Source: an uncultured Acidobacterium sp. | GTDB lineage: Bacteria > Acidobacteriota > Vicinamibacteria > Vicinamibacterales > UBA2999 | Direction: 5' to 3' | DNA: 64,000 nucleotides | Assembly (NCBI GenBank): GCA_964513235.1 | Contig: CAZEMI010000239.1 | Location: 3,991-67,990, forward strand | Position numbers and translations under genes: made by a program | Shown here: positions 30,919 through 55,021 of the stretch, piece after piece | Layout of the letters: each line of letters begins with the position of its first letter | Position numbering within the stretch: position 1 is the stretch's first letter | The notes under the pieces: generated by a model | The model's database searches: none | What the model was told of the DNA's origin: nothing | Seen by the model: the letters and a program-made list of their open reading frames with translations, nothing else

Positions 30919-30925
30919 TGTGCCC

Positions 30926-33446: not shown

Positions 33447-34858
33447 TCTTTGCCGCCGGCGCGCTCGCCACGCAGATCGCACTCGCGCCCTGCGCCATCG
33501 ACGGCGTGCCCGGCCAGGCGCACTGTGGCACCTACCAGGTGTGGAAAAACCGCGACTCGAGGCAGGGACGCCAGATCGACCTGGCGGTCCTCGTGCTGCC
33601 GGCGCTCGAACCGAACAAGAAGGCCGACCCATTTTTCATGCTCCAGGGCGGGCCCGGCGATGCGCCGTCGTTCAACGCGCGCTTCTATGGCCGCGTTTTT
33701 CACGACATTCGCAGGACTCGGGACCTCGTGCTCGTGGATTTGCGCGGGACCGGCAAGTCCGGCGCGTTGACGTGCCCCGAGCTGGCGAAACCGGATACTG
33801 ACGGCAACTTCGATGCGAACCTGTTGAGCGTGCCGGCGGTGCGCGCCTGCCGCGCGCGGCTGGAGAAGATCGCCGATCTGCGTTGGTATACGACGGAGAT
33901 CGCCGTCGACGATCTCGAAGACGTCCGCCAGGCCCTCGGCTATGGGCCGATCAACGTCTATGGCACGTCGTACGGCTCGCGCGTCGCGCAGGTCTACCTG
34001 CGCAAGTATCCGAAGAGCCTCCGCGCCGTGGCGATGAAAGGGATCGTGCCCGCGTCGATGGCGATGCCCGAGACGCACGCGCGCGCTGGCGAGGATGCGT
34101 GGACAGCGCTGGTGGCGCGTTGCCAGGGCGACGCGAACTGCCGCCGGACATTTCCGACGCTCGACGCCGACTTCCGCCAATTGCTCGCGCGCCTCGACAA
34201 AGAGGCGCCGGTCCTGACCCGGTCCGCGGGAGGAAGCCGGCCGGCAGCGACCATCCAAGTCACGCGTGGTTTGTTCGCGGAAGCGTTTCGCAACGTCCTC
34301 TACACGCCCGAAGGCGCGGCGCAGGCGCCGCTGCGGGTGACGCAATTGCTGGCCGGCGACGATCGCCGTCTCGCGGAAACGGCGCTGGCCGGCCGCACGG
34401 TGTTAGGAGGCGAACGCCTGGCGGCCGGGTTCTTCCTGTCGGTCACCTGCACCGAGGACATTCCGTTTTTGTCGAAGGATGCCGACGCCAAGGCCACCGG
34501 GACGTTCGGGGGCGCCTATCGACTGCAACAGCAGCGAGCCGCGTGCCAGGAGTGGCCGCGCGGCGCGGTGTCGACCGCGCATCGGCAACCCACCACCTCC
34601 GCCGTGCCCGCGTTGTTGATCTCCGGCGAGCTCGACCCGGTGACGCCGCCCTCTGGCGCCGACGAGGTGGTGCGTCATTGGTCGCGCGGCCGTCACGTGG
34701 TGATTCGCAACAACGGTCATCCGATCGGCAACGCCGAAAAATGCATCGGCGAAATGATTGGCGAGTTCCTCGATCGTGGCTCCGCCGATGGCCTGGCGAT
34801 CGGTTGCGCCGCCAACAACCCCGCGCCGCCGTTTCTCCTTTCCGGACCACAGCCGTGA
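33443..34858 (+). CDS. Exported alpha/beta-hydrolase (S33/TAP-like peptidase)
   Basis: LQGGPG, DLRGTGKS, YGTSYGS nucleophile, GELDPVTP, NGH. Confidence 0.85.
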   Translation: MIFAAGALATQIALAPCAIDGVPGQAHCGTYQVWKNRDSRQGRQIDLAVLVLPALEPNKKADPFFMLQGGPGDAPSFNARFYGRVFHDIRRTRDLVLVDLRGTGKSGALTCPELAKPDTDGNFDANLLSVPAVRACRARLEKIADLRWYTTEIAVDDLEDVRQALGYGPINVYGTSYGSRVAQVYLRKYPKSLRAVAMKGIVPASMAMPETHARAGEDAWTALVARCQGDANCRRTFPTLDADFRQLLARLDKEAPVLTRSAGGSRPAATIQVTRGLFAEAFRNVLYTPEGAAQAPLRVTQLLAGDDRRLAETALAGRTVLGGERLAAGFFLSVTCTEDIPFLSKDADAKATGTFGGAYRLQQQRAACQEWPRGAVSTAHRQPTTSAVPALLISGELDPVTPPSGADEVVRHWSRGRHVVIRNNGHPIGNAEKCIGEMIGEFLDRGSADGLAIGCAANNPAPPFLLSGPQP

Positions 34859-34863
34859 CCGCG

Positions 34864-37269
34864 ATGCTGGCCGACTTTACCCACGGGCTTCGTGTGCTCA
34901 TTCGCACGCCGCTATTCACCACCTGCACGATCGCGGCGCTGGCCATCGGGATCGGATCGACCACGGCGCTCTTCAGCGTGGTGCATGCGATGCTGCTGAA
35001 GCCGCTGCCGTACGCGGACGCGGATCGGCTGCTCGTGATCTGGGAACACAACCGGCCGCGCAATCGCCCCCGCAACGTGGTCAACATCGTCAACTTCATG
35101 GGCTGGCGCGATCGCAGCAAGTTGTTCGACGGCATGGCAGCGCTCCAGCAGAACCGCGTCACGTTGACCGGCAGCGCCGAGCCGATGGAGCTGTCGACGC
35201 TCGTCGTCACGGCCAACATGTTCGACGTGCTCGGCGCTTCGCCGATGATCGGGCGCAGGTTCCTGGCAGGGGAAGATCAGAGCACGTCGGCGCGCACGAT
35301 CCTCCTGTCGCACGGACTCTGGGTGCGCCAGTTCGGCGGCACCGCGAGCGTGCTGGGCACGCCCGTCACCGTGAACGGCGAGCCTGTGGTGGTGATCGGC
35401 GTCATGCCGCCCGGGTTTGAGATTCTCGGCCAGCAGGCCGACGCCATCACCGCGTTCCGCTTCGGTCCACAAACGGGCACGGGCGGCCGCGGCCTGGTGG
35501 CGATCGGCCGCATGAAGCCTGGTGTCACTCGCGACCAGGCGCAGGCCGAGCTCGAGGGCGTGATGACCGGGTTGCGCAACGAGCGGCCTGACTTCAACAC
35601 CGGGTGGACCGTCAACGCGGTGCCGCTCCGCGAGCAGCTGGTCGGCGACATCCGGCCGGCCTTACTGGCGCTCTTTGGCGCCGTCGGCGCGGTCTTGCTG
35701 ATCGCCTGCGGCAACATCGGCAGCCTGATGCTGACGCGCGCGGCGGGCCGCCGCCGCGAGCTCGCCATTCGCGCGGCGGTGGGCGCCGGCACTGGCCGCC
35801 TGCTGACGCAGCTGGTCTGCGAAGCGTTCGTGCTGGCGATGGCCGGCGGCGTGCTCGGCGTGATCCTGGCGCGGTGGCTGCTGAGCGGCCTGACCTCGTG
35901 GGTGTCGACCCGCGTGCCGCTGCCCCTCCTCGGACAAGTGCAAATCGATCCCACCGTGTTGATCTTCGCGGCGGCGATCACCATCCTGACCACGCTGGTG
36001 TGCGGGCTGGCCCCGGCGATTGGGGCCACCGGCGGCTCGCTCGTGTCGGCATTGAGAGACGGCGCGCCCACCACGGCCGGCAGCGTGCGCGGCCGGCTGA
36101 TCCGGCAGGGATTTGTGATTGCCGAGATCGCGCTGGCACTCACGGTGTTATGCGGCGCGGGCGTGCTCGGCCGCAGCCTGATGCAACTGCAAGGCGTGAA
36201 TCCCGGGTTCCAACCGGAATCCGCGTTGTCGTTGCGGGTCACGCTGCCGCAACGGAGTTACCCGGATTCGGACGCGCAACACACGTTTCACGTGCGGACC
36301 ATCGACGGATTGAAGGCGCTGCCGGGCACTCGAGCGGTGGGCGGCACGTCGTTCCTGCCGCTCGCGGGTATTGGACCGGCAACGTCGTTCTGGCGGGCCG
36401 ATCAACCGCAGCCCGCGCCTGACGATCGCCCCGTGGCCGATGCCCGGCCGGTGACCGCCGGCTATTTCACCGCCATGGGCATTCCGCTGCTCGCCGGCCG
36501 TGACGTCAACGACAACGACACGTCCGATCGTCCACCGGTGGCCGTGATCAACGAATCCTTCGCGCGGCAGATCTATCCGGGCGACAACCCGATCGGCCGG
36601 CAGTTCATCCTCAATCTCGGCAACGAGCAGCCGCACGAGATCATCGGCGTGGTCGGCGACGTGAAGCTGGTCAGCCTTGACGGAGAGATTCGCCCGACCG
36701 CGTACCTGTCCTCGCGCCAGTATGCCTTCGGGATCATGACCTACGTGGTTCGGACCGACACCGACCCCTCGACGATCGCGCCGGCCGCGGTGCGCGTGAT
36801 TCGCGAGATCGATCCGCTGCTGCCGGTGTCGGCGGTGCGGCCGCTCGACGAGGTGTTCGCCGAATCGATCGCGCGGCCGCGATTGACGGCCTCGGCGATG
36901 AGCATCTTCGCGGGCGCGGCGCTGCTGCTCGCGGCGCTCGGGGTCTACGGCATCGTCGCGTATTCGGTGGCGCAGCGCTCGCGCGAGTTCGGCATTCGCG
37001 TCGCGCTCGGCGCCAAGCCGGCCCAGATCATCACCATGGTTGTCGGCCAGAACCTGCGCATTGTCGTGATTGGCGTCATCCTCGGGATCGTCGTGGCGAT
37101 TCCGGCCACTCGCATGCTGCGCGGGTTGCTGTTCAACGTGCCGCCCAACGATCCAGCGACCTTCATCGCGATCGGCGTGATGTTGTCGGTCGTAGCGATG
37201 GTGGCCTCGTATCTGCCCGCCAGGCGCGGTACACAGATCGATCCCGTGGTGACGTTGAAATCGGAGTAG
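34864..37269 (+). CDS. ADOP-family duplicated ABC permease
   Basis: Two MacB-PCD/FtsX halves; LLIACGNIG..RRRELAIRAAVGAG; GVYGIVAYSVAQRSREFGIRVALGA; IDPVVTLKSE; start ATG 34864. Confidence 0.9.
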   Translation: MLADFTHGLRVLIRTPLFTTCTIAALAIGIGSTTALFSVVHAMLLKPLPYADADRLLVIWEHNRPRNRPRNVVNIVNFMGWRDRSKLFDGMAALQQNRVTLTGSAEPMELSTLVVTANMFDVLGASPMIGRRFLAGEDQSTSARTILLSHGLWVRQFGGTASVLGTPVTVNGEPVVVIGVMPPGFEILGQQADAITAFRFGPQTGTGGRGLVAIGRMKPGVTRDQAQAELEGVMTGLRNERPDFNTGWTVNAVPLREQLVGDIRPALLALFGAVGAVLLIACGNIGSLMLTRAAGRRRELAIRAAVGAGTGRLLTQLVCEAFVLAMAGGVLGVILARWLLSGLTSWVSTRVPLPLLGQVQIDPTVLIFAAAITILTTLVCGLAPAIGATGGSLVSALRDGAPTTAGSVRGRLIRQGFVIAEIALALTVLCGAGVLGRSLMQLQGVNPGFQPESALSLRVTLPQRSYPDSDAQHTFHVRTIDGLKALPGTRAVGGTSFLPLAGIGPATSFWRADQPQPAPDDRPVADARPVTAGYFTAMGIPLLAGRDVNDNDTSDRPPVAVINESFARQIYPGDNPIGRQFILNLGNEQPHEIIGVVGDVKLVSLDGEIRPTAYLSSRQYAFGIMTYVVRTDTDPSTIAPAAVRVIREIDPLLPVSAVRPLDEVFAESIARPRLTASAMSIFAGAALLLAALGVYGIVAYSVAQRSREFGIRVALGAKPAQIITMVVGQNLRIVVIGVILGIVVAIPATRMLRGLLFNVPPNDPATFIAIGVMLSVVAMVASYLPARRGTQIDPVVTLKSE

Positions 37270-37276
37270 CCGGCAA

Positions 37277-37873
37277 TCAGTCGGCCTGAACGACCGTGCG
37301 CACGCTGCGGTGCCCGCGGGCGAGTTCCGCGGGCAGCAGCTTGCTGAAGTACAACTTGGACTCGTCGTTGTCGGTGGGGTGCGCCTCGTGCTTGACCACG
37401 TTGAAGTGGAGCTGCGCCAGCACGGCACGCATGTCGTAGTAGCGATTCTTCGCCTTGACGACCACTTCTTCGAACCCCGCCGACATCGCCCACACTTCTG
37501 ATTCCTCGGTGAGCGCGCGGAAGTGGCCCTGGCCGCGCCAGTCGCGCCGCGTGCCGCCGATCCATTGATAGAGAATGCGCCGGCCGTCGAACTTGACGGG
37601 ACCGTTGATGCGGCTGACCAGGTCGCGCAGCTTGGGGATCGATTCCTGCGCGCGGATCTCGTGCACGATCTTGTAGGACACCGGCACGAGCGCGCCGCTC
37701 GGATCGTCAGGCAGCGGCGCTTCGGCCATCAGGATCAGAAATTCGCGATCGCCTAACCGGTCGATGATCTCGGACGCCGTCTTGCGGCGCGGGAACTCGC
37801 CAAAGTATTCCTCGAGGTATTGGATTTCCCACGCCCCGGGCTCGAGGGCGTACTGCTTGATCAGGTATTCCAC
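37277..37873 (-). CDS. GNAT-fold protein of unknown specificity (198 aa)
   Basis: Start re-called at GTG 37873 (VEYLIKQY); acetyl-CoA motif A-like WIGGTRRDWRGQGHFRAL; KAKNRYYDMRAVL..F. Confidence 0.7.
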   Translation of the reverse strand: MEYLIKQYALEPGAWEIQYLEEYFGEFPRRKTASEIIDRLGDREFLILMAEAPLPDDPSGALVPVSYKIVHEIRAQESIPKLRDLVSRINGPVKFDGRRILYQWIGGTRRDWRGQGHFRALTEESEVWAMSAGFEEVVVKAKNRYYDMRAVLAQLHFNVVKHEAHPTDNDESKLYFSKLLPAELARGHRSVRTVVQAD

Positions 37874-37883
37874 CAGACCGTCG

Positions 37884-37889
37884 ATTATA
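37884..37889 (-). promoter_or_regulatory. Consensus -10 hexamer TATAAT overlapping the sigma-factor stop codon
   Basis: Minus strand TATAAT, 10 nt before GTG 37873. Confidence 0.5.
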
Positions 37890-39147
37890 CGAGAAGGGAT
37901 AGGCGCGCCGTGAGCCAGCGGTGTTCGGGCGACGAGCGCGCCAGCCCAAGGGCGGCGCGATAGCACGCCGCCGCGCGCTCGAGATCGCCGGCCTCCCGCC
38001 ATAATTCGGCTTGGATGGCGGGCAGCAGCGGATAGCGCTCCAGCGCCGGCGCGTTCGCGACCCCGTCGAGCGCGGCGAGGCCCGACAGCGGGCCGTCGAT
38101 GCGCGACACCGCGACGGCGCGATTGACCGCTACCACCGGCGAGCGCGTCAGCGCGAGCAGCGCGTCGTAGAGTTCGACGATCTGGGGCCAGTCGGTGGCG
38201 TCCCATGACGGGGCGGCCGCGTGGCAGGCGGCAATGCCCGCCTCGAGATGCCGCGCCGTCACGGTCTCCCCCGCCGCGGCGCGATCGAGCGCGTGCAGGC
38301 CTTCGGCAATCAGCGCGCGATCCCACGTGCCGCGATCCTGATCTCGCAGCAGGAACAGCGTGCCTTCCGAATCGACGCGCGCCGGAAATCGAGCGGCGTG
38401 CAACAACATCAGCGCCACGAGCGCCCATACGCGCGGGCACACCGTGGCCGGATGCGCCGCCAGCATGCGCGCCAGCCTGATTGCCTCGAACGCCACCTCA
38501 TCGCGCACGAGTTGATCGCCGGCGGTGGCGGCGTAGCCTTCGTTGAACATGAGATAGAGCGCGTCGATGACGGAGTCGAGCCGCTCACCAAGCTCGTGCG
38601 GCGCGGGCATCCCGAAGCTGACTTCGTCGTCGCGCAGCTGGCGCCTGGCGCGCACCAGCCGTTGCGCGATCGTGCTTTCCTGCGAGAGAAACGCGCGCGC
38701 GATCTCGCCGACGCTGAAGCCCCCGGCCAGTTTCAACGCGAGCGCGACGCGGGCATCGGCCGGTAACGCGGGATGACACGTGAGAAACAACAAGCCCAGC
38801 TGGTCGTCGTCAAGCGCGGGCAGTTCGTCTCGCAGCAACGGATCGGCGGAGGGTAATTCAATGGTTGCGGACTCGCGCGCGAGGGCCGGCTCCTTGTCCG
38901 CCACCATCCTGCCGTGACGCAATCGATCGAGCGCGCGGTTACGCGCCACCTGGAAGAGCCACGCTTCGGGGCTGTCGGGAACGCCGCGAAACGGCCACTG
39001 CTGCATCGCCGTCAGTAGCGCGTCCTGCACCGCGTCTTCGGCGACGGTCAGGTGGCGTGAGCCCAGGGTCCTGGTGAGCGTCGCGACCATCTGCCCCGCC
39101 TGCCGGCGGAACAGATGATCCACAAGTGCAATAGCCTCGGTGGTCAC
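37885..39147 (-). CDS. ECF sigma factor with C-terminal TPR/DUF6596 extension (ECF42-type)
   Basis: AEDAVQDA..AWLFQVARNRALDRLR, LLFLTCHPAL, IAQRLVRARRQL, YLMFNEGY, SPVVAVNRAVA; paired with YciI/DGPF gene. Confidence 0.88.
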   Translation of the reverse strand: MTTEAIALVDHLFRRQAGQMVATLTRTLGSRHLTVAEDAVQDALLTAMQQWPFRGVPDSPEAWLFQVARNRALDRLRHGRMVADKEPALARESATIELPSADPLLRDELPALDDDQLGLLFLTCHPALPADARVALALKLAGGFSVGEIARAFLSQESTIAQRLVRARRQLRDDEVSFGMPAPHELGERLDSVIDALYLMFNEGYAATAGDQLVRDEVAFEAIRLARMLAAHPATVCPRVWALVALMLLHAARFPARVDSEGTLFLLRDQDRGTWDRALIAEGLHALDRAAAGETVTARHLEAGIAACHAAAPSWDATDWPQIVELYDALLALTRSPVVAVNRAVAVSRIDGPLSGLAALDGVANAPALERYPLLPAIQAELWREAGDLERAAACYRAALGLARSSPEHRWLTARLSLLV

Positions 39148-39166
39148 GGTCCCGGACCCTTTACAA

Positions 39167-39511
39167 TTACGTGGGATCAACCTCGCGGATCTCGATCGAG
39201 CCGAAATCGAGGTGCGGGCAGTCCTTGCTCAGCTCGACCACTTCTTCGTAACTGTTCGCCTCGACGATGAACAGGCCGCCGATCACCTCGCGCGCTTCGG
39301 CGTAGGGGCCGTCGGTGACCTTTGTGCTCCCCGACCCGCCGCGCATCACGCGGCCCTGGCCGTCGGTGAGCTTGTGGCCCTCAACCTTGCGGCCGTTCTG
39401 CTGGATCTTCTGCCGCCATGTGACGTAGCGCTGGATGATGGCCTGGATCTGGTCGGGGCTGATGTCGGCCGGGAAGCCGGCGTCGTGCAAGAGCATGATG
39501 AACTTGGGCAT
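39167..39511 (-). CDS. YciI/DGPF-family protein
   Basis: AAGGAG RBS; VTDGPYAEAREVIGGLFIVEA, GSIEIREV. Confidence 0.9.
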   Translation of the reverse strand: MPKFIMLLHDAGFPADISPDQIQAIIQRYVTWRQKIQQNGRKVEGHKLTDGQGRVMRGGSGSTKVTDGPYAEAREVIGGLFIVEANSYEEVVELSKDCPHLDFGSIEIREVDPT

Positions 39512-39656
39512 AAGGCACTCCTTGTCGGGATCCGGGATCCGGGATCCGCTAGTTGCCCAATTGACGATCAACCGTCCGCAAAATCGACAACACGGTTTCA
39601 GGGAAGCGCGTCATTGTAACCAACCCTTTGCCGGCCCATCCCGTCTGATACTTCGA

Positions 39657-40067
39657 ATGTCTAGGTATCCCGCGGATTTCCTCCACGGCACGCTCGACAC
39701 CCTCATCCTCAAGACCCTCACCGGCGGTCCCATGCACGGCTACGCCATCGGCAAGTGGATCGAGGACGCCACCGATTCCACGATCGAGCTGGAAGAAGGG
39801 TCGCTCTATCCCGCGCTGTATCGGCTCGAAAAGCGCGGGCTGCTCGATGCCGAGTGGGGCACGTCCGAGCTCGGGCGGCGCGCCAAGTTTTATCGCCTGA
39901 CGCGCGCCGGCCGGCAGCAACTCGCCAGCCACGCCGCGGCCTGGGCGGAGTTCTCCGCGGCGGTCAATCGCGTGCTGTTGTCGGCCTTCGCTCGCGCGGG
40001 TTCTGGCGAGCTACGGCGAGATCTCGCCGTAGCGCCCTCCGGGCGCGGAGGCGGGCGAGGAGTGTAA
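39657..40067 (+). CDS. PadR-family regulator (acidobacterial ADOP-associated type)
   Basis: GTLDTLILKTL..GPMHGYAI, EEGSLYPALYRLEKRG, RRAKFYRLT; 3' end extended through a palindrome. Confidence 0.9.
   Translation: MSRYPADFLHGTLDTLILKTLTGGPMHGYAIGKWIEDATDSTIELEEGSLYPALYRLEKRGLLDAEWGTSELGRRAKFYRLTRAGRQQLASHAAAWAEFSAAVNRVLLSAFARAGSGELRRDLAVAPSGRGGGRGV
39984..40052. repeat. REP-like element with a perfect 24-bp central palindrome, inside the PadR 3' end
   Basis: gctacggcgagatctcgccgtagc (40010-40033) enclosed by gccttcgc / gcggaggc. Confidence 0.75.
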
Positions 40068-40069
40068 CG

Positions 40070-42727
40070 ATGGCTATTCGCAGGCGGTTGCGATCGCTCC
40101 TGTGGCGCGTGCCGATCGAGCAGGAAGTGCAGGAGGAGCTCGATCATCACATCGCGCTCAGAACGCAGGAGCTCGTCGACACAGGCGTCGATCCCGCCGA
40201 GGCGCGTGCGCAGGCACGGCGCCGGATCGAGAAGGCACGCCTCGAAGCCGAGCTCACGCGCCTGGGCCGCGAGCGCAACACCACCTGGGCGCGCCGTGAA
40301 GCGCTCGACGAGCTTCGCCAGGATCTCGCCTTCGCGCTGCGGCAGTGCCGCACCAAGCCGGGATTCACGATGGCGGCCGTGCTTACCCTGGCGCTTGGCC
40401 TTGGCGCCACCACCGCGATCTTCAGCGTGGTGCACGCCGTGGTGCTCACACCGTACGCGTACCCGGACCCCGATCGCGTAGTGCTCACGTTCTCGCTGCT
40501 GCGCGGCAACCGCGGCAGCTGGTCGGTGGGGAATTTCCACTACTTCGATCAGCGGTTGACGACCACGTCGCATTTCGCCGCCGCCGCGGGGACCAGCCTC
40601 AACCTCGCCGGCGCCGGCGACCCCGAGCGCGTGGTCGGCAGGCGCGTCACGCATGACTTCTTCCCACTCTTCGGCATCGCGCCGGCGCTTGGGCGCACCT
40701 TCACGGCCGACGAGGATCAACCGGGCCGCACCAACGTGGTGGTGCTCAGCCATCGGCTGTGGCAGCGGCGATTCAACGCCGATCCTAGCCTCCTCGGGCG
40801 CGCCATCCGGATCAATGGCGAGCAGTACGACGCGATCGGCGTGATGCCTCCGGATTTCGATCGGATCGGCGATGCCGCCGAGGCGTGGATTCCCGCCGGC
40901 TTCACGCCCGCGCAGCTCGCCATGTTCGACGAGTTCTACCTCGACGTGTACGCGCGGCACAGACCGGAATTCTCGCTCGCGCAGGTCAACGACGAGTTCG
41001 TGCGAGTCGGGCGGCAACTGTCGGTCGATCAGGCATTCATGAACGCCGAGCGCAGTGCCGGCGTGGAACGGCTGAGCACGTTCTATATCGGCGATTACCG
41101 GCTGCGCTTGTTGATCCTGCTCGGCGCGGTTGGCCTCGTGCTGCTCATCGCCTGCGGCAACGTCGCCAACCTCCAGCTCGCCCGGCTCGCGGCCCGCTCG
41201 CGCGAGCTCGCCATTCGCGCCGCCATCGGTGCCGGGCGCGGCCGCATCGTCCGGCAGGTGTTGACCGAGAGCCTCGTGCTGGCCGGCCTCGGCGGCGCGG
41301 CCGGTGTCGTGGTGGCTTATTGGGCCCTGCCGATGCTCGTCGCGATGGCGCCGGACGGCGTGCCGCGACTGACGACGGCACGCCTGAACGGCAGCGTGCT
41401 CGCGGCCGCCGGCCTCCTGGTGGTGCTGAGCGCGATCATCGTCGGGCTGCTCCCGGCGTGGCAGGCGACGCGGCGCCGGTTGTTGACCGACGACCTGGGC
41501 GACGGTAAAGGCGCGTTGAGCGGGACGCTCAAACCATGGATGCGCCAACTGTTGATCGGCGCGCAAGCGGCGATCGTGATGATCGTCCTGTCTGGTGCGG
41601 CGTTACTGGTACGCAGCGCCATCAATCTCCAACAGGAGCCCATGGGCTTCGACATCAACGGCGTGCTGAGCGCGCGGATCGCGTTGCCGGCGGCGCAATA
41701 CGGTCCGCCAGAGACCTCGCGCGCGGCCTACCGCCAGGTGCTCGAGCGCGTCGCGGCGTCACCAGGTGTCCGTTTCGCCGCGCTGGATTCACAGGCGCCG
41801 CTGGTGACCCGCGGCGGCTCGAACGGGCTGCTGCCGGAAGGACGACAGCAGGGCGGCGATCTCATCCAGTCCGACTCGCACTTCGTGACGCCCGACTACT
41901 TCAAGGTGTTGAACATCACGCTCACAGCGGGACGCACGTTCACGGACGCCGACATCCGCCAGGCGCCGCTGGTGATGGTGATCAACGAAACGCTCGCGCG
42001 CGCGGCCTACGGCGATGCCGATCCGATCGGCAAACGGATGATCTGCTGTGAAGGCTCGCCCGACGATCCGATGTGGAAGACCGTGATCGGCGTGGTCGGC
42101 GACGTCAAAGGCCGCGGGCCGGCGCAACCGCCGCGTCCGGAGTTCTACCTGCCGCTCATGCAGGTACCCGATCTGGCCTGGACGTGGTTCGGCCGCACGC
42201 TCACCATCCTCACGCGCGGCGACGATCCCGCGTCGATGACCACGGCGATTCGAGAGTCGGTGCGATCGCTCGACCGCAGCCTGCCCGTGTTCGCGATCCG
42301 CACGATGGACGAGGGCCTCGACCGAGTCATGGCGCAGGCGCGCTTCAACACGATGTTGATGACGCTGCTGGCCGCCACGGGCCTGCTGCTGGCGGCGCTG
42401 GGGATCTACAGCGTGATCGCATGGCTGGTGGTGCAGCGCACGCGCGAGATCGGCGTGCGCATGGCGCTGGGCGCCTCGACGCGTGACGTGATCAGGATGA
42501 TGAGCGTGCACGGGCTGAAACCGGTGATCGCCGGACTCGCGGTTGGCGTCGCCGGCGCGCTGGCGACGACGCGGTTGCTGCAGAACCAGTTGTTCGAAGT
42601 CGGCCCGCGCGATCCGATCACGCTGGTCGCCACGGCCGCGGTGCTGCTCGTCGTGGGCGGCGCCGCGGCGGCGATTCCGGCGTGGCGCGCCACCGCCATC
42701 GATCCGTCGGCGGCACTACGGGATTAA
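40070..42727 (+). CDS. ADOP-family duplicated ABC permease with N-terminal prefix domain
   Basis: EQEVQEELDHHIALR prefix; LRQDLAFALRQ; two FtsX halves; IDPSAALRD; start ATG 40070 after GAGGAG. Confidence 0.9.
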   Translation: MAIRRRLRSLLWRVPIEQEVQEELDHHIALRTQELVDTGVDPAEARAQARRRIEKARLEAELTRLGRERNTTWARREALDELRQDLAFALRQCRTKPGFTMAAVLTLALGLGATTAIFSVVHAVVLTPYAYPDPDRVVLTFSLLRGNRGSWSVGNFHYFDQRLTTTSHFAAAAGTSLNLAGAGDPERVVGRRVTHDFFPLFGIAPALGRTFTADEDQPGRTNVVVLSHRLWQRRFNADPSLLGRAIRINGEQYDAIGVMPPDFDRIGDAAEAWIPAGFTPAQLAMFDEFYLDVYARHRPEFSLAQVNDEFVRVGRQLSVDQAFMNAERSAGVERLSTFYIGDYRLRLLILLGAVGLVLLIACGNVANLQLARLAARSRELAIRAAIGAGRGRIVRQVLTESLVLAGLGGAAGVVVAYWALPMLVAMAPDGVPRLTTARLNGSVLAAAGLLVVLSAIIVGLLPAWQATRRRLLTDDLGDGKGALSGTLKPWMRQLLIGAQAAIVMIVLSGAALLVRSAINLQQEPMGFDINGVLSARIALPAAQYGPPETSRAAYRQVLERVAASPGVRFAALDSQAPLVTRGGSNGLLPEGRQQGGDLIQSDSHFVTPDYFKVLNITLTAGRTFTDADIRQAPLVMVINETLARAAYGDADPIGKRMICCEGSPDDPMWKTVIGVVGDVKGRGPAQPPRPEFYLPLMQVPDLAWTWFGRTLTILTRGDDPASMTTAIRESVRSLDRSLPVFAIRTMDEGLDRVMAQARFNTMLMTLLAATGLLLAALGIYSVIAWLVVQRTREIGVRMALGASTRDVIRMMSVHGLKPVIAGLAVGVAGALATTRLLQNQLFEVGPRDPITLVATAAVLLVVGGAAAAIPAWRATAIDPSAALRD

Positions 42728-43981
42728 CACCGGGCGCGCGGCCGATTCCCACTGGGCGTCCCAGCGTTGCGGCGGATTCTGCCGCAGCCACGCGCGGGAT
42801 TTCGCCAGCGGACCGTCAGGCGCGATTGATCGGGTGGCGACGCTGACGAGGAGACTCGCGAGGTCGCCTGGATCGCGGAACGTGACGCCTTCGTGTCCCG
42901 TCTCCATCACTTCACCGAGCACCTGCGAGTAGTCGTAAGTGGCGGCCGGCACGCCCGCGCCGCGCAGATCGGCCAGCTTCATCGGCAAGTCGAGTCCCGA
43001 CGAGGACTGGTGCAGGCAGAGGCCGAGGTCGGCCATGCCGACGAGCGTCGGATAATCGGCTGGCTCCAGCCACGCCGTCTTCACGGCAATCGCCGTGAAG
43101 TTGCGGCGAGCCGCGCGCTGCTCGAACGTGTCACGCAGTGGGCCGCGGCCGGTGAGAAAGACCGCGAGGTCCGCCCCGCCCGTCGCTTCGCCGGGGTTCG
43201 CGCCGGCGGCGGCGGCCGATCGCGCACGCGTCAGCGTCCGCTCCGCGCGCTCAAGCGCTTCGAGCAGCAGATCGAAATCCTCGTCCGGCGTCCAGCTGGT
43301 GGGGCACACCACGATGGGCGGACGTGTGGCGCCGAGGTGATACTCGGCGGCGAGCCTGTTCCACAGCGCCGCCGCCACCTCCGGCGATGGCGGCGCGAAC
43401 GACGCCGCGGGCCGGTCGTACACGACCACCGGCTTCACACGATATTCGCGCGCCAGCCAGTCCCCCATCGCCTGCGACACCGCCAAGTGTCCGTCGGCGC
43501 GCTTCGCCCACCGCCGCTCGCTTCGCGCCAAAGACTTCACCGCGCGATGGCCCTCACCCACCGTCACCGCGGCAATGGTGTGCGAGAGGTTGTGCCAGTC
43601 GATCACGACGCGCGCGCCGCGCAGGCGCGCGGCGAGCCAGGCCATCGAGAGCGCCGGCACCGCCGGCGGGTTTTGCACGAGGATCACCTCGGGCTTGGGA
43701 ATGCGCATCAGCGTCGAGAAGAGGCGCGCCGCTTGCCCGGCGGCGCGCAGTGCCGATCCCCAGACGAACCGGCGGACGCCGCCTGTCGCGCGGCCGGCGA
43801 ACGCCCGGTCGCGCAGGCGATGACAATGAATCCGTGCGTTCCCCGACACGGCCGGCACCGTCGGCGCCCCTTCGAGCCCGATGAGATCCACCTCGCTGCC
43901 CGCGGCGGCGAGCGACACCGCGTGGTACTGCATGCGCGGGCTGCGGCCCAGATCTCCGATTACGATAACGGCGGTTCTCAT
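42716..43981 (-). CDS. ALG1-like beta-1,4-mannosyltransferase (GT33-like), no N-terminal TM anchor
   Basis: GDLGRSPRMQYHAVSLA, VQNPP, VIDWHN, VYDRP, TSWTPDEDFDLLL, TGRGPLR, WLEPADYP..ADLGLCLHQSSSGLDLPMK. All match eukaryotic ALG1 signature blocks as recalled, in the same order. Confidence 0.85.
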   Translation of the reverse strand: MRTAVIVIGDLGRSPRMQYHAVSLAAAGSEVDLIGLEGAPTVPAVSGNARIHCHRLRDRAFAGRATGGVRRFVWGSALRAAGQAARLFSTLMRIPKPEVILVQNPPAVPALSMAWLAARLRGARVVIDWHNLSHTIAAVTVGEGHRAVKSLARSERRWAKRADGHLAVSQAMGDWLAREYRVKPVVVYDRPAASFAPPSPEVAAALWNRLAAEYHLGATRPPIVVCPTSWTPDEDFDLLLEALERAERTLTRARSAAAAGANPGEATGGADLAVFLTGRGPLRDTFEQRAARRNFTAIAVKTAWLEPADYPTLVGMADLGLCLHQSSSGLDLPMKLADLRGAGVPAATYDYSQVLGEVMETGHEGVTFRDPGDLASLLVSVATRSIAPDGPLAKSRAWLRQNPPQRWDAQWESAARPVLIP

Positions 43982-44970
43982 TGAGCTTGTACCTGCTACT
44001 CGGCGTTAGCGGTGCCGCGCTGGCCCTGTTCCTGACCCCGCTGATTGGACGGGGTTCGACCGTGCTTGGACTGGTAGACGCCCCGGGGGGCAGGAAGGTT
44101 CATGCGCAATCGGTGCCTCGCCTGGGCGGCGTGGCGGTCGTGCTGGCCGCCGCGCTCGCGCTGGCGATCGTACCCGCATTGCTGCCGGGGTCCCGCGATC
44201 CCGAGATCTGGGTGGCGATGAGGCCCTTTGTGGTCGGCGGCCTCCTCATCTTCCTCGCCGGCCTCGTCGATGATATCCGCGGGCTTGGACCGGCGCCGAA
44301 GCTGCTCGTCGAGGTTCTCGCGGCCGCGGTCATGATCGCCTCGGGATTGTTGATCGAACGCGTCACGATTCTCGGCAGCACCTGGACGCTCGGATGGATC
44401 GCCTACCCGGTGACGGCGGCCTGGCTGGTCGGCGTCACCAACGCGTTCAACCTGATCGATGGCGTGGACGGGCTGGCGCCGGGCATTGCGGCGGTCGCCG
44501 GCGCGGCCTGCGGCGCCCTCCTCATCGTCCGCGGCCACACGGCCGAAGCCATGCTGCTGGCGGCGTTTGTCGGCGCGATGCTCGGGTTCCTGGTCTACAA
44601 CTTCGAGCCCGCGTCGATCTTCCTCGGCGACAGCGGCAGCCTGGTCGCCGGTTTCCTGCTCGCGGCGACGGCCATCGCCGGCTGGCAGAAGGGTGCGACG
44701 GCGCTCGCGTCGGCGGTACCCTTGCTGATCTTCGCGCTGCCGCTCGCCGACGCCGCGTCGGCACTGATGCGCCGCGCGCTGGCGCGGCCGACCCATGGCC
44801 GATCGCTCGGCGCCGTGATGCGGCAGGTGGTTGAACCGGATCGCGAGCACATCCATCATCGGCTGCTCGGTCTCGGGTGGTCGGTCCGCCGCACCGTGCT
44901 CATCCTCTACGGCGTGACCGCCGTGCTGTCGATCCTGGCGCTGGCGACCGCGCAAGTAGACGCCAGATGA
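43981..44970 (+). CDS. WecA/TagO-type polyprenyl-phosphate GlcNAc-1-phosphate transferase (PNPT family, includes ALG7/MraY)
   Basis: DAPGGRKVH..VPRLGG, GLVDD, NAFNLIDGVDGLA, IFLGDSGS, PDREHIHHRL; TTG start at 43981 or 43987. Confidence 0.88.
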   Translation: MSLYLLLGVSGAALALFLTPLIGRGSTVLGLVDAPGGRKVHAQSVPRLGGVAVVLAAALALAIVPALLPGSRDPEIWVAMRPFVVGGLLIFLAGLVDDIRGLGPAPKLLVEVLAAAVMIASGLLIERVTILGSTWTLGWIAYPVTAAWLVGVTNAFNLIDGVDGLAPGIAAVAGAACGALLIVRGHTAEAMLLAAFVGAMLGFLVYNFEPASIFLGDSGSLVAGFLLAATAIAGWQKGATALASAVPLLIFALPLADAASALMRRALARPTHGRSLGAVMRQVVEPDREHIHHRLLGLGWSVRRTVLILYGVTAVLSILALATAQVDAR

Positions 44971-46145
44971 AGGCCACAAATGGCACGGAACCGCATTCCA
45001 GCAAGCGCGTGCTGCTGGTGCAGCCGTCGATGCAGCCGCCGGGCGGCGGCCACGGCGTGGCCGCATGGGTGCTGCAGGCGCTGGCGCCGGAACATCGCGT
45101 CACCGTGCTGTCGTGGCGGCCGGTCGAGATCGATCCGATCAACCGCTTCTTCGGCACGCACCTGAAGCCCGCCGATTTCGACACGCTCGTGGTGCCGTGG
45201 CACTGGCGCGTCATCCCCGATCATCTGCCGGTGCCGGCGGCGCTGGTCAGGCTGTCGCTGATGATGCGCTACACGCGCCGGGTCAGCCGCGGGTTCGAGG
45301 TGGTGTTCGGCATGTTCAACGAGACCGATTACGGCCGCAAGGGTATTCAATACGTTCACTATCCGACCTATCTGCGCCCGCGTCCGGCGGTGGACCTGCG
45401 GTGGTATCACGCCGCGCGGTGGCCGCTGCGGCTTTACTATGCCGCCGCCGATCGTCTCGCGCACTTCTCACACGATCGCCTGAAACAGAACCTGACGCTG
45501 GTGAACTCCGACTGGACGGGCCGGCACGTCCAGGGGTTTCTCGGCGTTCCGACGCGGACGTTGTACCCGCCGGTTGCCGATCCGGCGCCGGGCGCGCCGT
45601 GGGCGGAGCGCCGCCACGGCTTTCTCGCCATCGGCCGCCTCTCTCCGGAAAAGGAGTTCGAGCGCGTGATGACGATCCTGGCGCGGGTCCGCGACCGGGT
45701 CCCGGCCGTCACGCTGACGATCATCGGCACGTGGGACCACCAGGCGCGCCGCTATCGCGATCGGCTCTTCGATCGGGCGCGGTCGCTGGGACCGTGGATT
45801 ACATTCCGGCAGAACATCAGCCGCGACGAGATCCGCGCCCTGATGGCCACGCATCGCTATGGCATCCATGGCATGCGCGAGGAACATTTCGGGATGGCGC
45901 CCGCGGAGCTCGCGCGGGCCGGCTGCATCGTGTGGGTGCCGCGCGGCGGCGGGCAGATGGAAGTCGTCGGCGGTGAGCCCGCGTTGATGTACGACTCGGA
46001 GGATGACGCGGTCGAGAAGATCGCGAGAACGCTCGCGTCGCCGGCCGAACAGGATCGGCTGCGTCAGGTCCTCACCGCGAGCGAGCGGTTTTCGACCGCC
46101 AACTTCGTCAGGCAGGTCCGCGACATCGTCGAGGAGTTCAGGTGA
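44967..46145 (+). CDS. GT4 glycosyltransferase with ALG11-like motifs
   Basis: PPGGGHGVAAW, YVHYPT, VNSDWT, LYPP, IGRLSPEK, GIHGMREEHFGMAPAE; ATG 44967 overlaps the wecA stop (ATGA). Confidence 0.8.
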   Translation: MKATNGTEPHSSKRVLLVQPSMQPPGGGHGVAAWVLQALAPEHRVTVLSWRPVEIDPINRFFGTHLKPADFDTLVVPWHWRVIPDHLPVPAALVRLSLMMRYTRRVSRGFEVVFGMFNETDYGRKGIQYVHYPTYLRPRPAVDLRWYHAARWPLRLYYAAADRLAHFSHDRLKQNLTLVNSDWTGRHVQGFLGVPTRTLYPPVADPAPGAPWAERRHGFLAIGRLSPEKEFERVMTILARVRDRVPAVTLTIIGTWDHQARRYRDRLFDRARSLGPWITFRQNISRDEIRALMATHRYGIHGMREEHFGMAPAELARAGCIVWVPRGGGQMEVVGGEPALMYDSEDDAVEKIARTLASPAEQDRLRQVLTASERFSTANFVRQVRDIVEEFR

Positions 46146-47913
46146 GCTGTCGGAATCCGGGATCGCGCATCAGCTCGTCGTAGGTGCCGAGGCCGGCAAT
46201 GCCGCCGTCGCGCAAGTAGATCAACTGATCGCAGCCCTTCACCGTCGACAACCGGTGTGCGATCGCAATTACGGTGCGCAAGCCGTGAACGTTGGCGATG
46301 GCCTCGGTCACTTCGCGTTCGGTCTGGTTGTCGAGCGCCGCGGTGGCTTCATCGAAGACCAGCACCTGCGGATCGTGATAGAGCGCGCGCGCAATCGCCA
46401 CGCGTTGCCGTTGCCCACCCGACAGGCGAATGCCGTTTTCGCCAATCACCGTCTCCAACCTGTTGGGCAGCGCGGCGACGACCTCGTCGAGCCTGGCCTG
46501 CGACACCGCGTTGGCCAGCCGCTGTTCATCGATCGCGCTGTCGGGAATGCCGAACGCGATATTGCGGCTCAGCGAATCGTCGAGCAGATACACGTCCTGC
46601 GGGACGTAGCCAATCTGGCGCTGCCACGCCCGCTCCCGGCCGTCGAGCGGCTGGCCGTCGATCAGCACGCGGCCGCTCGTCGGCGCGAGCAGGCCCAGCA
46701 GCAGGTCGACCAGGGTGCTCTTGCCGGCGCCGGTGGGGCCGACGATGCCGATCGATTGCCCGCGCGCAATCGTGAACGAGATGTGATCGAGCGCGGGGGC
46801 CGGCGCGTCCTCGTAGCGAAACGACACATCCTCGCACGCCAGGGTGGCCTGCAGCATCGGCGGCACGGGTTCGTAGGTCCGCGTCGCGGGCGGCTTCAGC
46901 CGCCGCATGTCCTCGTCCATGCCGCGGATCCACGGGTGCGCCTCGCGCATGTAGCCGACGTTCAGCATGATCCGGTTGGCCGACGGCACGACGCGGAATC
47001 CCGTATACGCGAACAGCGCCAGCACCGACACGATGTAGGCGCTCGGCACGGCCGCGCGCATCACCAGAAAGACGACGATCAACATGCTGAGGATGAGCGT
47101 GGCTTCGACGCCCAGCCGCGCCACCGCCGCCGCCGTCGCGCGCCGCTGCTTGGTGGCGCCGAGCTCGCGCTTCACGTCGCGGAAACGCTCCTCGAAGAAT
47201 GGCTGCCGGCCCGTGACTGTCACGTCCTTGATGGCGCCGAGGCTCTGCTGCAGCAGATGGAGCTGCTGCTGATAGAGCGTGCGCTCGGTGGCGCCGATGC
47301 GCTCCCACGAACGGCGCGTCAGGACGATCGGCACGAGCACCACGCCAAGCACCACCGCCACGGTGACGACCGTGACCAGCGGCGCCGACACGATCAGGAC
47401 GATGGCGAGGGCGGTGATGGTGGCGGCTTCGGCAAGGATGTTCACCGCCGATCCGGCGCCGAGCTCGAACGCGATATCAGAGGTCCGCGACACCGGTTCG
47501 ATCAACGACGCCGAGCGCCGCTTGACGTGGAATAAATAGTCGGCGGCGAGATACCGGGCGAGCAGCCGTTCGCCGGCGATCGCCGAGGACCCGTAGACGG
47601 TCCTCATCCGCACCCATTCGGCCCACGACAGGAACGCCGCACGCAGGACGTAGAACGCGGCGACCGCGAGCGCGAGCAAGGCCACCATCGCGCGGGGCTG
47701 GTATCGCGACGGCATCAGGGTCCACAAGTCCGACACCACCGGCGCGGTCCGCACCAGTTCGGGATCGACGACCAGCCGCAACAACCCGAACACCGCCAAC
47801 GCGCCCGCGGCTTCGATCAGCGCGGCCATCCCGGCGATCGGCACGAGCAAGAGCCACCGCCAGCGCCATCGCGCCGGCAGCCATCCGATCACGGATCGTA
47901 GGTCGCGCAACAA
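46138..47913 (-). CDS. PglK/WlaB-like ABC exporter (TMD + NBD), candidate lipid-linked glycan flippase
   Basis: RYLAADYLFHVKRRSASL (PglK-type coupling region), GPTGAGKST, LSGGQRQR, VFDEATAALD, IAHRL. Confidence 0.85.
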   Translation of the reverse strand: MLRDLRSVIGWLPARWRWRWLLLVPIAGMAALIEAAGALAVFGLLRLVVDPELVRTAPVVSDLWTLMPSRYQPRAMVALLALAVAAFYVLRAAFLSWAEWVRMRTVYGSSAIAGERLLARYLAADYLFHVKRRSASLIEPVSRTSDIAFELGAGSAVNILAEAATITALAIVLIVSAPLVTVVTVAVVLGVVLVPIVLTRRSWERIGATERTLYQQQLHLLQQSLGAIKDVTVTGRQPFFEERFRDVKRELGATKQRRATAAAVARLGVEATLILSMLIVVFLVMRAAVPSAYIVSVLALFAYTGFRVVPSANRIMLNVGYMREAHPWIRGMDEDMRRLKPPATRTYEPVPPMLQATLACEDVSFRYEDAPAPALDHISFTIARGQSIGIVGPTGAGKSTLVDLLLGLLAPTSGRVLIDGQPLDGRERAWQRQIGYVPQDVYLLDDSLSRNIAFGIPDSAIDEQRLANAVSQARLDEVVAALPNRLETVIGENGIRLSGGQRQRVAIARALYHDPQVLVFDEATAALDNQTEREVTEAIANVHGLRTVIAIAHRLSTVKGCDQLIYLRDGGIAGLGTYDELMRDPGFRQLT

Positions 47914-54041: not shown

Positions 54042-54053
54042 GAGTGACGAACC

Positions 54054-55012: not shown

Positions 55013-55021
55013 GCACTGCCT

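Follow-up and report, generated by a model that had tools for sequence, protein, structure and literature searches.

Genes at the locus

The present study concerns a stretch of 64,000 nucleotides (the whole of it is referred to as the window) from a soil acidobacterium (uncultured Acidobacterium sp., Vicinamibacterales; contig CAZEMI010000239.1 of assembly GCA_964513235.1). Four coding genes fill the region 42716-47913 without any spacers (Table 1). Their GC3 is 0.84-0.89 against a GC2 of 0.46-0.56, and each of the four has hundreds to thousands of homologs. A first-pass annotation, made from the sequence alone, had described four adjacent genes with overlapping ends for an initiating transferase of the PNPT family, an ALG1-signature mannosyltransferase, a GT4 glycosyltransferase with ALG11-like motifs and an ABC exporter with a PglK-type coupling motif, and this observation was confirmed in our analysis. 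It had not stated, however, that the genes lie on strands - + + -, which makes three transcription units and not one operon. Pfam searches supported the family assignments, with PF00953 for the PNPT, GT-B domains for the two glycosyltransferases and ABC_membrane plus ABC_tran for the exporter. The absence of ALG13/14-like, ALG2-like and oligosaccharyltransferase (OST) genes from the window, as noted in the first-pass annotation, was confirmed by six-frame tblastn and by Pfam scans of the larger genes.

Table 1. Features of the four-gene region, with positions counted from the first letter of the window.
Feature	Position	Strand	Length	Ends and overlaps
ALG1/GT33-family beta-1,4-mannosyltransferase homolog	42716-43981	-	421 aa	3' end overlaps the convergent ADOP permease by 12 bp
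WecA-like polyprenol-phosphate HexNAc-1-phosphate transferase (PNPT)	43981-44970	+		start at 43981 (TTG) or 43987 (the start may be TTG 43987); start codon 0-5 bp from the divergent ALG1 start
Divergent retaining GT4 glycosyltransferase (GT4a)	44967-46145	+		start ATG overlaps the PNPT stop as ATGA
ABC half-transporter (TMD-NBD), PglK/MsbA-type, candidate lipid-linked-oligosaccharide flippase	46138-47913	-		overlaps the GT4 3' end by 8 bp

The first of these genes codes for a genuine member of the ALG1/GT33 family. Pfam detected only generic GT-B N-domains in the protein, but its homologs are named 'beta-1,4-mannosyltransferase' by JGI, and it matches eukaryotic ALG1 over its full length with 33-43% identity and E-values of 1e-64 to 5e-79, which is orthologue-grade homology. 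Named eukaryotic members (amoebozoan, stramenopile, chytrid and oomycete) match at 36-43% identity, with E 1e-64 to 1e-76 for the ALG1 representatives and E 5e-79 for oomycete ALG1 K3WDV9. The family is small, with 807 clusters at E<=1e-30 in 1.84 billion representatives, and the window protein keeps all 28 residues that are >=95% conserved across the family, without any clade-specific switches. The ALG1 signature proposed in the first-pass annotation is real. The protein shows no similarity to its GT4 neighbour (E 0.32) and no predicted TM segment, and thus appears to be soluble.

The PNPT is a bacterial, WecA/MraY-like enzyme rather than an ALG7-like one. PF00953 scored 137 bits, the WecA model TIGR02380 scored 129 bits (below its cutoff of 326), and among proteins in the PDB MraY scored 46 bits and human DPAGT1 28 bits. 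A crude hydropathy scan found 8 hydrophobic segments, and an HIHH motif is visible in the translation. For GT4a, PF00534 matched the C-domain only and no ALG11_N domain was detected even at E<=10, so that the designation as ALG11-like rests only on motifs, namely an EHFG-type EX7E motif (EEHFGMAPAE) and a glycine loop (PPGGGHGVAAW). The AF2 model of the protein is confident (pLDDT 83.5) and shows a generic, retaining GT4 GT-B fold (TM 0.62-0.68) with an intact EX7E motif.

The exporter scored about equally against the NCBIfam models for MsbA (270 bits), HepA (269 bits) and PglK (250 bits). As these scores, like that of the WecA model, all lie far below the curated cutoffs, substrate assignments are at the family level only. 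The best half-transporter in the PDB was PglK with 227 bits, and with the TMD alone PglK scored 32.7 bits (E 6e-7) and MsbA 23.8. We could not identify a PglK coupling motif as such. However, the four functional arginines of the PglK cavity (R86, R260, R302 and R309) align with R91, R266, R307 and R314 of the window protein and are invariant in 34 window-type homologs, in a comparison that did not extend to MsbA. The exporter is thus PglK-like, although lipid or drug export of the MsbA type cannot be excluded.

Conservation of the gene set and larger loci in other lineages

Co-conservation of the four genes had been named beforehand as a point on which their joint reading would depend. Of 38 Vicinamibacterales loci of the window type with >=6 kb of flank, 31 have the PNPT, 31 have GT4a, 31 have the ABC exporter and 28 have all three beside ALG1, in the same order and on the same strands between MATE/PntAB and ADOP/FTHFS. 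The cluster decays in some relatives, as five loci keep ALG1 alone, one locus (L014) lacks GT4a and two (L037 and L038) lack the ABC gene, and the genes are therefore not strictly interdependent. The window ALG1 belongs to a separate Vicinamibacterales clade with 100% bootstrap support. All four window proteins also have 38-57% identical counterparts in Methylomirabilota, Binatia and Bryobacterales (Rokubacteria, Binatia/delta and Bryobacterales loci). For the PNPT, counterparts in Rokubacteria/Binatia/Luteitalea-type loci are 40-57% identical, and orthologs of GT4a sit next to ALG1 in Rokubacteria, Binatia/delta and Bryobacterales at 38-51% identity.

These findings bear on the possibility that the genes code for ordinary exopolysaccharide or LPS glycosyltransferases with only a superficial resemblance to ALG enzymes, next to an unrelated multidrug or lipid exporter, and that their adjacency has no meaning for a pathway. 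In favour of such a view, GT4a receives only generic annotations ('glycosyltransferase involved in cell wall biosynthesis' by JGI and weak EpsE/VpsD hits), the exporter does not discriminate between the MsbA, HepA and PglK models, and the genes lie on both strands next to a MATE efflux pump. However, the ALG1 homology is specific, the ALG1 family is separate from GT4, the four families are linked across at least four phyla with parallel identity levels, and the arginines of PglK are conserved. MATE stays in place in loci that have lost the cluster and is hence the unrelated neighbour. We consider this explanation very unlikely and already largely refuted by synteny and homology.

In the other phyla, and in cultured Luteitalea sp. 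TBR-22, ALG1 sits beside a MurG-like GT28 and an AglB/STT3 oligosaccharyltransferase. Among 31 such loci outside the window type, GT28 lies next to ALG1 in 28 and an OST lies within 10 kb in 23. Most of these OSTs carry WWDYG (Luteitalea has WWDSG), and one passes the TIGR04154 cutoff. Most of the loci outside Luteitalea also carry a GT4 with the ALG2 signatures GIGGAER and EHFGIVPLE. The gene order in Rokubacteria is ABC, GT4a, PNPT, GT28, ALG1, OST, which equals the window order plus the two missing genes, and other Vicinamibacteria including Luteitalea sp. TBR-22 have ALG1 | GT28-PNPT-OST. This is strong indirect support for a eukaryote-like lipid-linked oligosaccharide (LLO) pathway in bacteria. 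The window-type loci lack the GT28, the ALG2-signature GT4 and the OST, and no OST or GT28 homolog was found in the window or within 10 kb of any of the 49 window-type loci.

A proposed module for assembly and flipping of a lipid-linked glycan

We assume that the four genes represent a reduced module for the assembly and flipping of a short lipid-linked sugar chain, a reading that we regard as more likely than not. The genes, their families, the ALG1 homology, the conserved arginines and the co-conservation are shown by the present analysis, whereas the activities, donors, acceptors and products of all window-type proteins, and the order of steps given here, are inferred. The WecA-like PNPT would transfer HexNAc-1-P, most likely GlcNAc-1-P, to undecaprenyl phosphate, as inferred from its family and the HIHH motif. 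The soluble ALG1-family enzyme would then add a beta-1,4-mannose from GDP-Man to the GlcNAc-terminated PP-lipid, which may be either GlcNAc-PP-lipid or a chitobiosyl-PP-lipid made with a GlcNAc transferase encoded elsewhere. This chemistry is inferred from the homology and from the published activity of bacterial homologs. GT4a would add one or more alpha-linked hexoses, probably mannose, and the PglK-like half-transporter would flip the product by use of the conserved arginine belt that contacts the pyrophosphate in PglK, as inferred from the alignment.

That bacterial ALG1 homologs are active is already known. Xu et al. (bioRxiv 10.1101/2025.10.15.682550) showed that homologs from Gammaproteobacteria, Polyangia and Binatia, all outside the window-type clade, complement yeast alg1 and have beta-1,4-mannosyltransferase activity that yields Man-beta1,4-GlcNAc2-PP-phytanyl, while homologs from Methylomirabilota and 'Deltaproteobacteria' were inactive in their assays. 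The preprint reports no genomic context (neither operons nor neighbouring genes nor Acidobacteria are mentioned), and in the literature searched we found no paper that describes the gene-cluster context. As the MurG-like partner that is almost universal next to ALG1 elsewhere is missing in the window-type loci, the acceptor of the window ALG1 may differ, although its sequence shows no sign of a functional shift.

The first-pass annotation had inferred that this bacterium may build a mannosylated GlcNAc-PP-polyprenol resembling the eukaryotic N-glycan core, for protein glycosylation or a surface glycolipid, and this interpretation is only partly supported. The ALG1 homology, the PglK-like exporter and the co-conservation are in agreement with it, whereas the ALG7-like and ALG11-like identities are not supported. 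The window-type clade specifically lacks the enzyme for the second GlcNAc and the OST, both of which accompany ALG1 almost everywhere else, so that a Man-GlcNAc2 core and protein N-glycosylation remain unproven for this organism. It is possible, although we consider it doubtful, that the module feeds true N-glycosylation, with a MurG-like enzyme for the second GlcNAc and an AglB/STT3-type OST for transfer of the flipped Man-GlcNAc(2)-based LLO to Asn, both encoded elsewhere in the genome. The OSTs beside ALG1 in other lineages, the gene order in Rokubacteria and in Luteitalea, and the retention of every family-wide conserved residue in the window ALG1 speak for this possibility. On the other hand, none of the 120 best relatives of a Vicinamibacterales OST lies on a contig whose length matches that of a window-type contig, a set that includes a complete 5.35-Mb chromosome and contigs of 3.3, 1.4 and 1.0 Mb, but this test is indirect and incomplete as it left out 166 weaker hits. 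Moreover, none of the 31 OST-type ALG1 loci comes from the same assembly as a window-type locus.

Alternatively, the flipped glycan could be ligated to lipid A-core or another envelope glycolipid by a WaaL-type ligase, or to proteins by a PglL-type O-oligosaccharyltransferase, and the product would then be a short surface oligosaccharide rather than an N-glycan. An initiating PNPT, two to three GTs and a PglK-type flippase without OST, polymerase or chain-length regulator at the locus fit a short, non-polymerised glycan, and the consistent absence of OST and GT28 in this clade suggests that the pathway was re-routed. However, no Wzy_C/WaaL or PglL-like gene was seen among the window genes scanned, no LPS core genes lie adjacent, and the nearest relatives of every gene belong to OST-linked loci. 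This alternative can only be a tentative one. It would resemble the O-antigen route of Helicobacter pylori, which proceeds from WecA through glycosyltransferases and the PglK homolog Wzk to WaaL. WecA-type initiation, sequential GTs, a PglK-homolog flippase and the lack of Wzx/Wzy and of an OST in the cluster are common to both, but the GT set of the window is ALG1/GT33-based and no WaaL was found there.

The logic of the eukaryotic cytosolic LLO pathway (ALG7, ALG13/14, ALG1, ALG2, ALG11), in which a PNPT initiates and soluble GT-B enzymes extend the chain on the cytoplasmic face before flipping, matches that of the proposed module, and related bacterial loci also carry a MurG-like GT28 (the family of ALG13/14) and a GT4 with both ALG2 signature motifs. 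The window differs by the lack of ALG13/14-like and ALG2-like genes, by its WecA/MraY-like PNPT, by an ALG1 without membrane anchor, by a GT4 without ALG11_N domain, by a predicted ABC transporter flippase instead of the eukaryotic ER translocator (Rft1; PMC11182771) and by a lipid carrier that is presumably undecaprenol and not dolichol. In the pgl N-glycosylation system of Campylobacter jejuni (PglC/A/J/H/I, PglK, PglB), an LLO is likewise built on Und-PP in the cytoplasm and flipped by an ABC half-transporter, the solved structure most similar to that of the window. There, however, the initiating enzyme comes from a different superfamily, the glycosyltransferases are different, and the sugars are diNAcBac/GalNAc rather than the Man/GlcNAc inferred here; no PglB is present in the window, and the OSTs of related loci are of the AglB/STT3 type (TIGR04154). 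The related bacterial loci combine a PNPT, a MurG-like GT28 and an AglB-type OST, as crenarchaeal systems do for the chitobiose core (Agl24; PMC8993221), but the window itself lacks the GT28 and the OST, and archaea lack ALG1 according to the preprint of Xu et al.

In the window-type Vicinamibacterales clade the genes for GT28, the ALG2-signature GT4 and the OST are absent from the locus, and the periplasmic acceptor of the glycan (protein, LPS or other) is thus not specified by this sequence. The module may represent a reduced version of a larger, phylogenetically widespread bacterial locus for LLO assembly, built around a true relative of the eukaryotic N-glycan enzyme ALG1.

Gene arrangement and the ALG1-family protein

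The window is high-GC DNA (65-70%) whose proteins match Vicinamibacterales (Acidobacteriota) MAGs and which carries ADOP-family permeases (TIGR03434, 843 bits). A GC3-based gene map resolved four tightly packed genes, listed below together with the other features considered in this part. The first-pass annotation had described four adjacent genes with overlapping ends, and this observation is confirmed. The strands, however, run - + + -, so that there are three transcription units. PNPT and GT4 are translationally coupled through an ATGA overlap, whereas the ABC gene converges on the GT4. The ATG of the ALG1-like gene and the TTG of the PNPT are back to back, overlapping by 1 nt or lying 5 bp apart, with no intergenic space for a promoter. 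The close relative L001 (one of the retrieved window-type loci) has the same 5-bp gap between the two called genes, and the same divergent adjacency recurs across window-type loci. The promoters must lie inside the neighbouring coding regions, or the mRNAs are leaderless; a scan for promoters and terminators was uninformative.

Coordinates of the features in the window and in retrieved loci (L numbers)
Feature	Location	Strand	Remarks
ALG1-like GT-B protein	window 42716-43981	-	421 aa
PNPT	window 43981/43987-44970	+	
GT4 (GT4a)	window 44967-46145	+	
ABC half-transporter	window 46138-47913	-	
ALG1 and PNPT start codons	window 43979-43987		ATG (minus strand) and TTG
Low-GC stretch	window 12720-21262		caspase-domain/TPR/PEGA protein, Ser/Thr kinase with DUF4384, DndB-like (DNA-sulfur-modification-associated) protein, 926-aa M14 peptidase-like protein
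Regulator and permease stretch	window 30920-42727		also holds an ECF-type sigma factor with DUF6596 and a YCII protein
BlaI/BlaR1-like pair with HEAT repeats	window 31669-33446		
ADOP-family duplicated permeases (two)	window about 34858-37269 and about 39755-42727		
B12-binding radical-SAM stretch	window 52530-56385		radical-SAM protein followed by two small ORFs without Pfam hits, a HEAT-repeat protein and a GNAT acetyltransferase
Protein without Pfam hits	window 57611-59248		545 aa
Second GT4 (GT4b)	L001:6738-7862	-	374 aa, between GT4a and the ABC gene
Examples of loci resembling complete N-glycosylation systems	L063:1429-14380; L066:4933-13472; L067:1-7873		from the series L053-L080
Luteitalea sp. 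TBR-22 locus (AP024452.2)	L082:6580-12244		5,731-5,737 kb of AP024452.2
Repeat protein of about 1800 aa, Rokubacteria	L066:15023-20446; L067:7979-13855		also in L072 and L075
PMT_2-type GT-C protein of about 510 aa	L081:8454-9986; L060:7394-8923		Bryobacterales chromosome (L081) and Binatia contig (L060)

The flanking genes are unrelated to glycans, with an ADOP permease on one side and a MATE pump, PntAB and a radical-SAM protein on the other, and nothing else in the 64 kb looks glycan-related. The 545-aa protein without Pfam hits was considered as a possible membrane transferase, but has only a signal-peptide-like segment. The regulator and permease stretch is syntenic with relatives and unrelated to the glycan genes. 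The GC content dips to 0.61-0.64 between about 16 and 22 kb, and the stretch concerned may be an acquired or defence-related island. Extension of the contig beyond the window yielded only heme-biosynthesis genes on one side and no record on the other.

The ALG1 assignment proposed in the first-pass annotation holds. Pfam recognises only generic GT-B N-domains, and a sequence search of the PDB with this protein returned no relative. An exhaustive HMMER scan of 1.84 billion cluster representatives, however, finds a compact family of 807 clusters at E<=1e-30. The members that could be named are eukaryotic, namely Phalansterium, Chrysoparadoxa, two chytrids and Globisporangium ultimum (K3WDV9, annotated 'Beta-1,4-mannosyltransferase'), and match the window protein over its full length at 36-43% identity (E 1e-64 to 1e-76); BLASTP against K3WDV9 gives E 5e-79. 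The homology includes the signature blocks GDxGRSPRMQYHA, QNPP, DWHN, TSWTxDEDF, TGxGP and SSSGLDLPMK, and all 28 positions that are >=95% conserved across the family are kept. By contrast, the protein is unrelated at the sequence level to its own GT4 neighbour (E 0.32). JGI labels its close homologs 'beta-1,4-mannosyltransferase'. Eukaryotic ALG1 typically has an N-terminal membrane anchor. The bacterial protein has no hydrophobic segment and starts directly at the GDLGRSPRMQYHA block, whereas the eukaryotic representatives carry 10-60 extra N-terminal residues.

In 2016 the origin of ALG1 was listed as unknown, and the enzyme was considered possibly a eukaryotic innovation (PMC4973528). A preprint of October 2025 (10.1101/2025.10.15.682550) found 204 bacterial ALG1 homologs and no reliable archaeal one. 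Homologs from Gammaproteobacteria, Polyangia and Binatia complemented yeast alg1 and made Man-beta1,4-GlcNAc2-PP-phytanyl, whereas those from Methylomirabilota and 'Deltaproteobacteria' were inactive. The GDP-Man:GlcNAc2-PP-lipid beta-1,4-mannosyltransferase activity is shown only for homologs from other phyla and is inferred for the window-type protein. The preprint does not discuss genomic context or what the homologs do in bacteria. Our literature searches for an ALG1-containing gene cluster, or an ALG1/OST cluster, in Binatia, Rokubacteria, Luteitalea or Acidobacteria found no description of one.

The three partner proteins

The PNPT is bacterial in type. It carries PF00953 (137 bits), and a crude hydropathy scan finds 8 hydrophobic segments. 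WecA (UDP-GlcNAc:Und-P GlcNAc-1-P transferase) is the best NCBIfam model (TIGR02380), at 129 bits far below its cutoff of 326. An HIHH motif, which is linked to UDP-GlcNAc recognition, is present. In the PDB, MraY (46.5 bits) scores higher than human DPAGT1 (28 bits). The earlier designation as ALG7-like is therefore true only at the superfamily level.

The GT4 has a recognisable C-domain only. No ALG11_N domain (PF15924) was detected, even at E<=10, in the window GT4 or in its two relatives in L001, and JGI gives only a generic name. A PDB sequence search gave only weak generic GT4 hits. A confident predicted structure (pLDDT 83.5) matches many retaining GT4 enzymes about equally, at TM 0.62-0.68; the fold search could not discriminate ALG11 or ALG2, because neither appeared among the matches. 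The EX7E motif (EEHFGMAPAE) and the N-terminal glycine loop (PPGGGHGVAAW) resemble the ALG2/ALG11 type. This resemblance is one of motifs alone, a literature search for a description of the ALG11 motif found none, and the ALG11 label of the first-pass annotation stays a lead rather than a finding.

The ABC protein has the TMD-NBD half-transporter architecture and scores about equally against the MsbA (270 bits), HepA (269 bits) and PglK (NF050066, 249.8 bits against a cutoff of 1000) models, all below their cutoffs, so that an equivalog-level match to PglK is not obtained. Among solved half-transporters, on the other hand, PglK is the best match (227 bits), and with the membrane domain alone PglK (32.7 bits, E 6e-7) leads MsbA (23.8 bits). 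The four arginines described as functionally relevant in PglK and thought to contact the LLO pyrophosphate (R86, R260, R302, R309; PMC5395944) align with R91, R266, R307 and R314, which are invariant in 34 window-type homologs. The resemblance to a PglK-type flippase thus survives testing, although flipping by the window protein is inferred. The neighbouring MATE protein was also considered as a Wzx-like flippase, but it passes the MATE efflux model and stays in place in loci that have lost the cluster.

Conservation of the module and the larger loci of other lineages

A scan of GTDB species representatives returned 80 loci, of which 49 Vicinamibacterales loci resemble the window (type A) and 31 do not (type B). 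Of the 49 type-A loci, 38 have at least 6 kb of upstream flank; among those, 31 have the PNPT, 31 the GT4, 31 the ABC gene and 28 all three. Order and strands are the same as in the window, between MATE/PntAB and ADOP or formate-THF ligase. The latter, the commonest neighbour of ALG1 in Vicinamibacterales, was first suspected to be a GT-C enzyme but is formate-tetrahydrofolate ligase and unrelated. In 9 of the 38 loci, L001 among them, a second, paralogous GT4 (GT4b, 36% identical to GT4a) is present. It is cleanly absent from the window, so the glycan probably differs by one sugar between close relatives. Some lineages have lost parts of the cluster: one locus lacks the GT4, two lack the ABC gene, and five (L042, L044, L045, L048, L050) keep a more divergent ALG1 (47-53% identity) alone in the same chromosomal position, with an esterase-like gene in place of the partners in two of them. 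Several type-A loci (L003-L005, L008, L009, L027, L029, L047, L048, L050) come from MAGs labelled Cyanobacteriota, Acidimicrobiia, Bifidobacteriaceae or Microthrixaceae, yet share 47-88% identical ALG1 and, where flanks exist, the same flanking synteny; these taxonomic labels are probably wrong. In a neighbour-joining tree the type-A ALG1s form a clade with 100% bootstrap support. The deeper nodes, including the position of eukaryotes, are unresolved (all <25%), and no claim is made about the sister group.

Type-B loci come from Methylomirabilota/Rokubacteria, Binatia, 'Deltaproteobacteria', Bryobacterales, a verrucomicrobial MAG, a planctomycete MAG and a few Vicinamibacterales. Here ALG1 is flanked by a MurG-like GT28 in 28 of 31 loci and by an AglB/STT3-type oligosaccharyltransferase (OST) in 23 of 31. 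The GT28 is a MurG paralog (163 bits to PDB 3s2u; TIGR01133 scores 211, below its cutoff of 250). Six of the seven OSTs examined carry WWDYG, that of Luteitalea has WWDSG, and one passes the curated TIGR04154 cutoff (477.7 against 450). The canonical GT4 beside ALG1 in these loci carries both signatures that the preprint defines for ALG2, GIGGAER and EHFGIVPLE. Homologs of the window's PNPT, GT4 and ABC protein are in the same loci, each 38-57% identical to its window counterpart. In Rokubacteria the order is ABC(+), GT4a(-), PNPT(-), GT28(-), ALG1(+), OST(+), which is the window arrangement plus the two missing genes.

The cultured Luteitalea sp. TBR-22 has ALG1 | GT28-PNPT-OST, and a Vicinamibacterales MAG has the same four genes. 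Loci in Binatia, 'Deltaproteobacteria', Methylomirabilota/Rokubacteria and some Vicinamibacteria (L053-L080 and the separately retrieved L082, from Luteitalea, and L083) look like complete N-glycosylation systems. Taken together they combine a PNPT, a MurG-like GT28, ALG1, an ALG2-signature GT4, a GT4a-like GT4, a PglK-like ABC transporter and an AglB/STT3 OST, but individual loci carry different subsets. Many of the MAG loci have the ALG2-type GT4, the GT4a-like GT4 and the ABC transporter, whereas L082 and L083 hold only the ALG1-like GT, GT28, PNPT and OST, and the Luteitalea locus shows no ALG2-type GT4, GT4a-like GT4 or PglK-like ABC transporter within 10 kb. We found no description of such loci in the literature searched. 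In Rokubacteria a protein of about 1800 aa with nine Flg_new_2 repeats and Big_2 domains lies directly downstream of the OST/ALG2-like genes and is a candidate surface-glycoprotein substrate. In L081 and L060 a PMT_2-type GT-C protein sits immediately upstream of ALG1; no STT3 was detected within 10 kb in L081, whereas L060 also carries an OST at its contig edge.

Neither a GT28 (or ALG13/14) nor an OST is encoded in the window or in any of the 49 type-A loci. Translated searches with GT28 queries produced short hits at the ALG1/PNPT junction in the window and in relatives, which were rejected as artefacts of over-extended query ORFs running antisense into the ALG1 5' ends. None of the type-B loci comes from a type-A assembly. 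Among the 120 best relatives of a Vicinamibacterales OST (166 weaker hits were left out), none sits on a contig whose length matches a type-A contig, a comparison that includes a complete 5.35-Mb chromosome but is indirect, as the sizes of the contigs served only as a proxy for their identity.

Interpretation and significance

The safest reading is that the window encodes a reduced LLO assembly-and-flipping module, homologous gene for gene to part of a larger bacterial locus that looks like a complete N-glycosylation system with a eukaryote-type core. We hold this model with moderate confidence. The analysis establishes the gene arrangement, the ALG1 homology, the PglK resemblance and the synteny, whereas mannosyl transfer, initiation and flipping by the window proteins are inferred from homology. 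The interpretation of the first-pass annotation is supported only in part. A Man-GlcNAc2 N-glycan core is not demonstrable for this genome, because the two defining extra enzymes are absent from the locus. The type-A ALG1 shows no sign of functional change, and its acceptor could be GlcNAc-PP-lipid or chitobiosyl-PP-lipid made in trans. The flipped glycan could be passed to protein via a distal OST, to lipid A-core or another glycolipid via a ligase, or to neither. Protein N-glycosylation in this organism appears doubtful on present evidence, an LPS/glycolipid or O-linked route is a tentative possibility, and a meaningless adjacency of the four genes is very unlikely. These three alternatives concern the fate of the glycan or the null case and overlap with the module model.

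The synteny gives the published bacterial ALG1 homologs a native context, a conserved lipid-linked-glycan assembly and flipping module that in several phyla is physically linked to a MurG-like enzyme, an ALG2-type enzyme and an archaeal-type OST. The most interesting result lies outside the window. It is possible, although we consider it less likely than not, that several bacterial phyla (Methylomirabilota, Binatia and relatives, some Acidobacteriota including Luteitalea sp. TBR-22) carry out AglB-dependent protein N-glycosylation with a eukaryote-type Man(1-3)GlcNAc2 core, built by a PNPT, a MurG-like enzyme and ALG1 and ALG2 homologs and flipped by a PglK-like transporter. The window's cluster would then be a streamlined offshoot of that pathway, either still feeding a distal OST or re-routed to another acceptor, and such loci would be the best living model for the bacterial source of the eukaryotic ALG1/ALG2 steps. 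The long-standing question of where the Man-GlcNAc2 core of N-glycans came from becomes directly testable, for which cultured Vicinamibacteria such as Luteitalea sp. TBR-22 could be used. The window's own version may be a compact source of enzymes for glyco-engineering and, as it lacks the transferase and the second-GlcNAc enzyme, is a natural experiment on how such a pathway is trimmed or re-routed.
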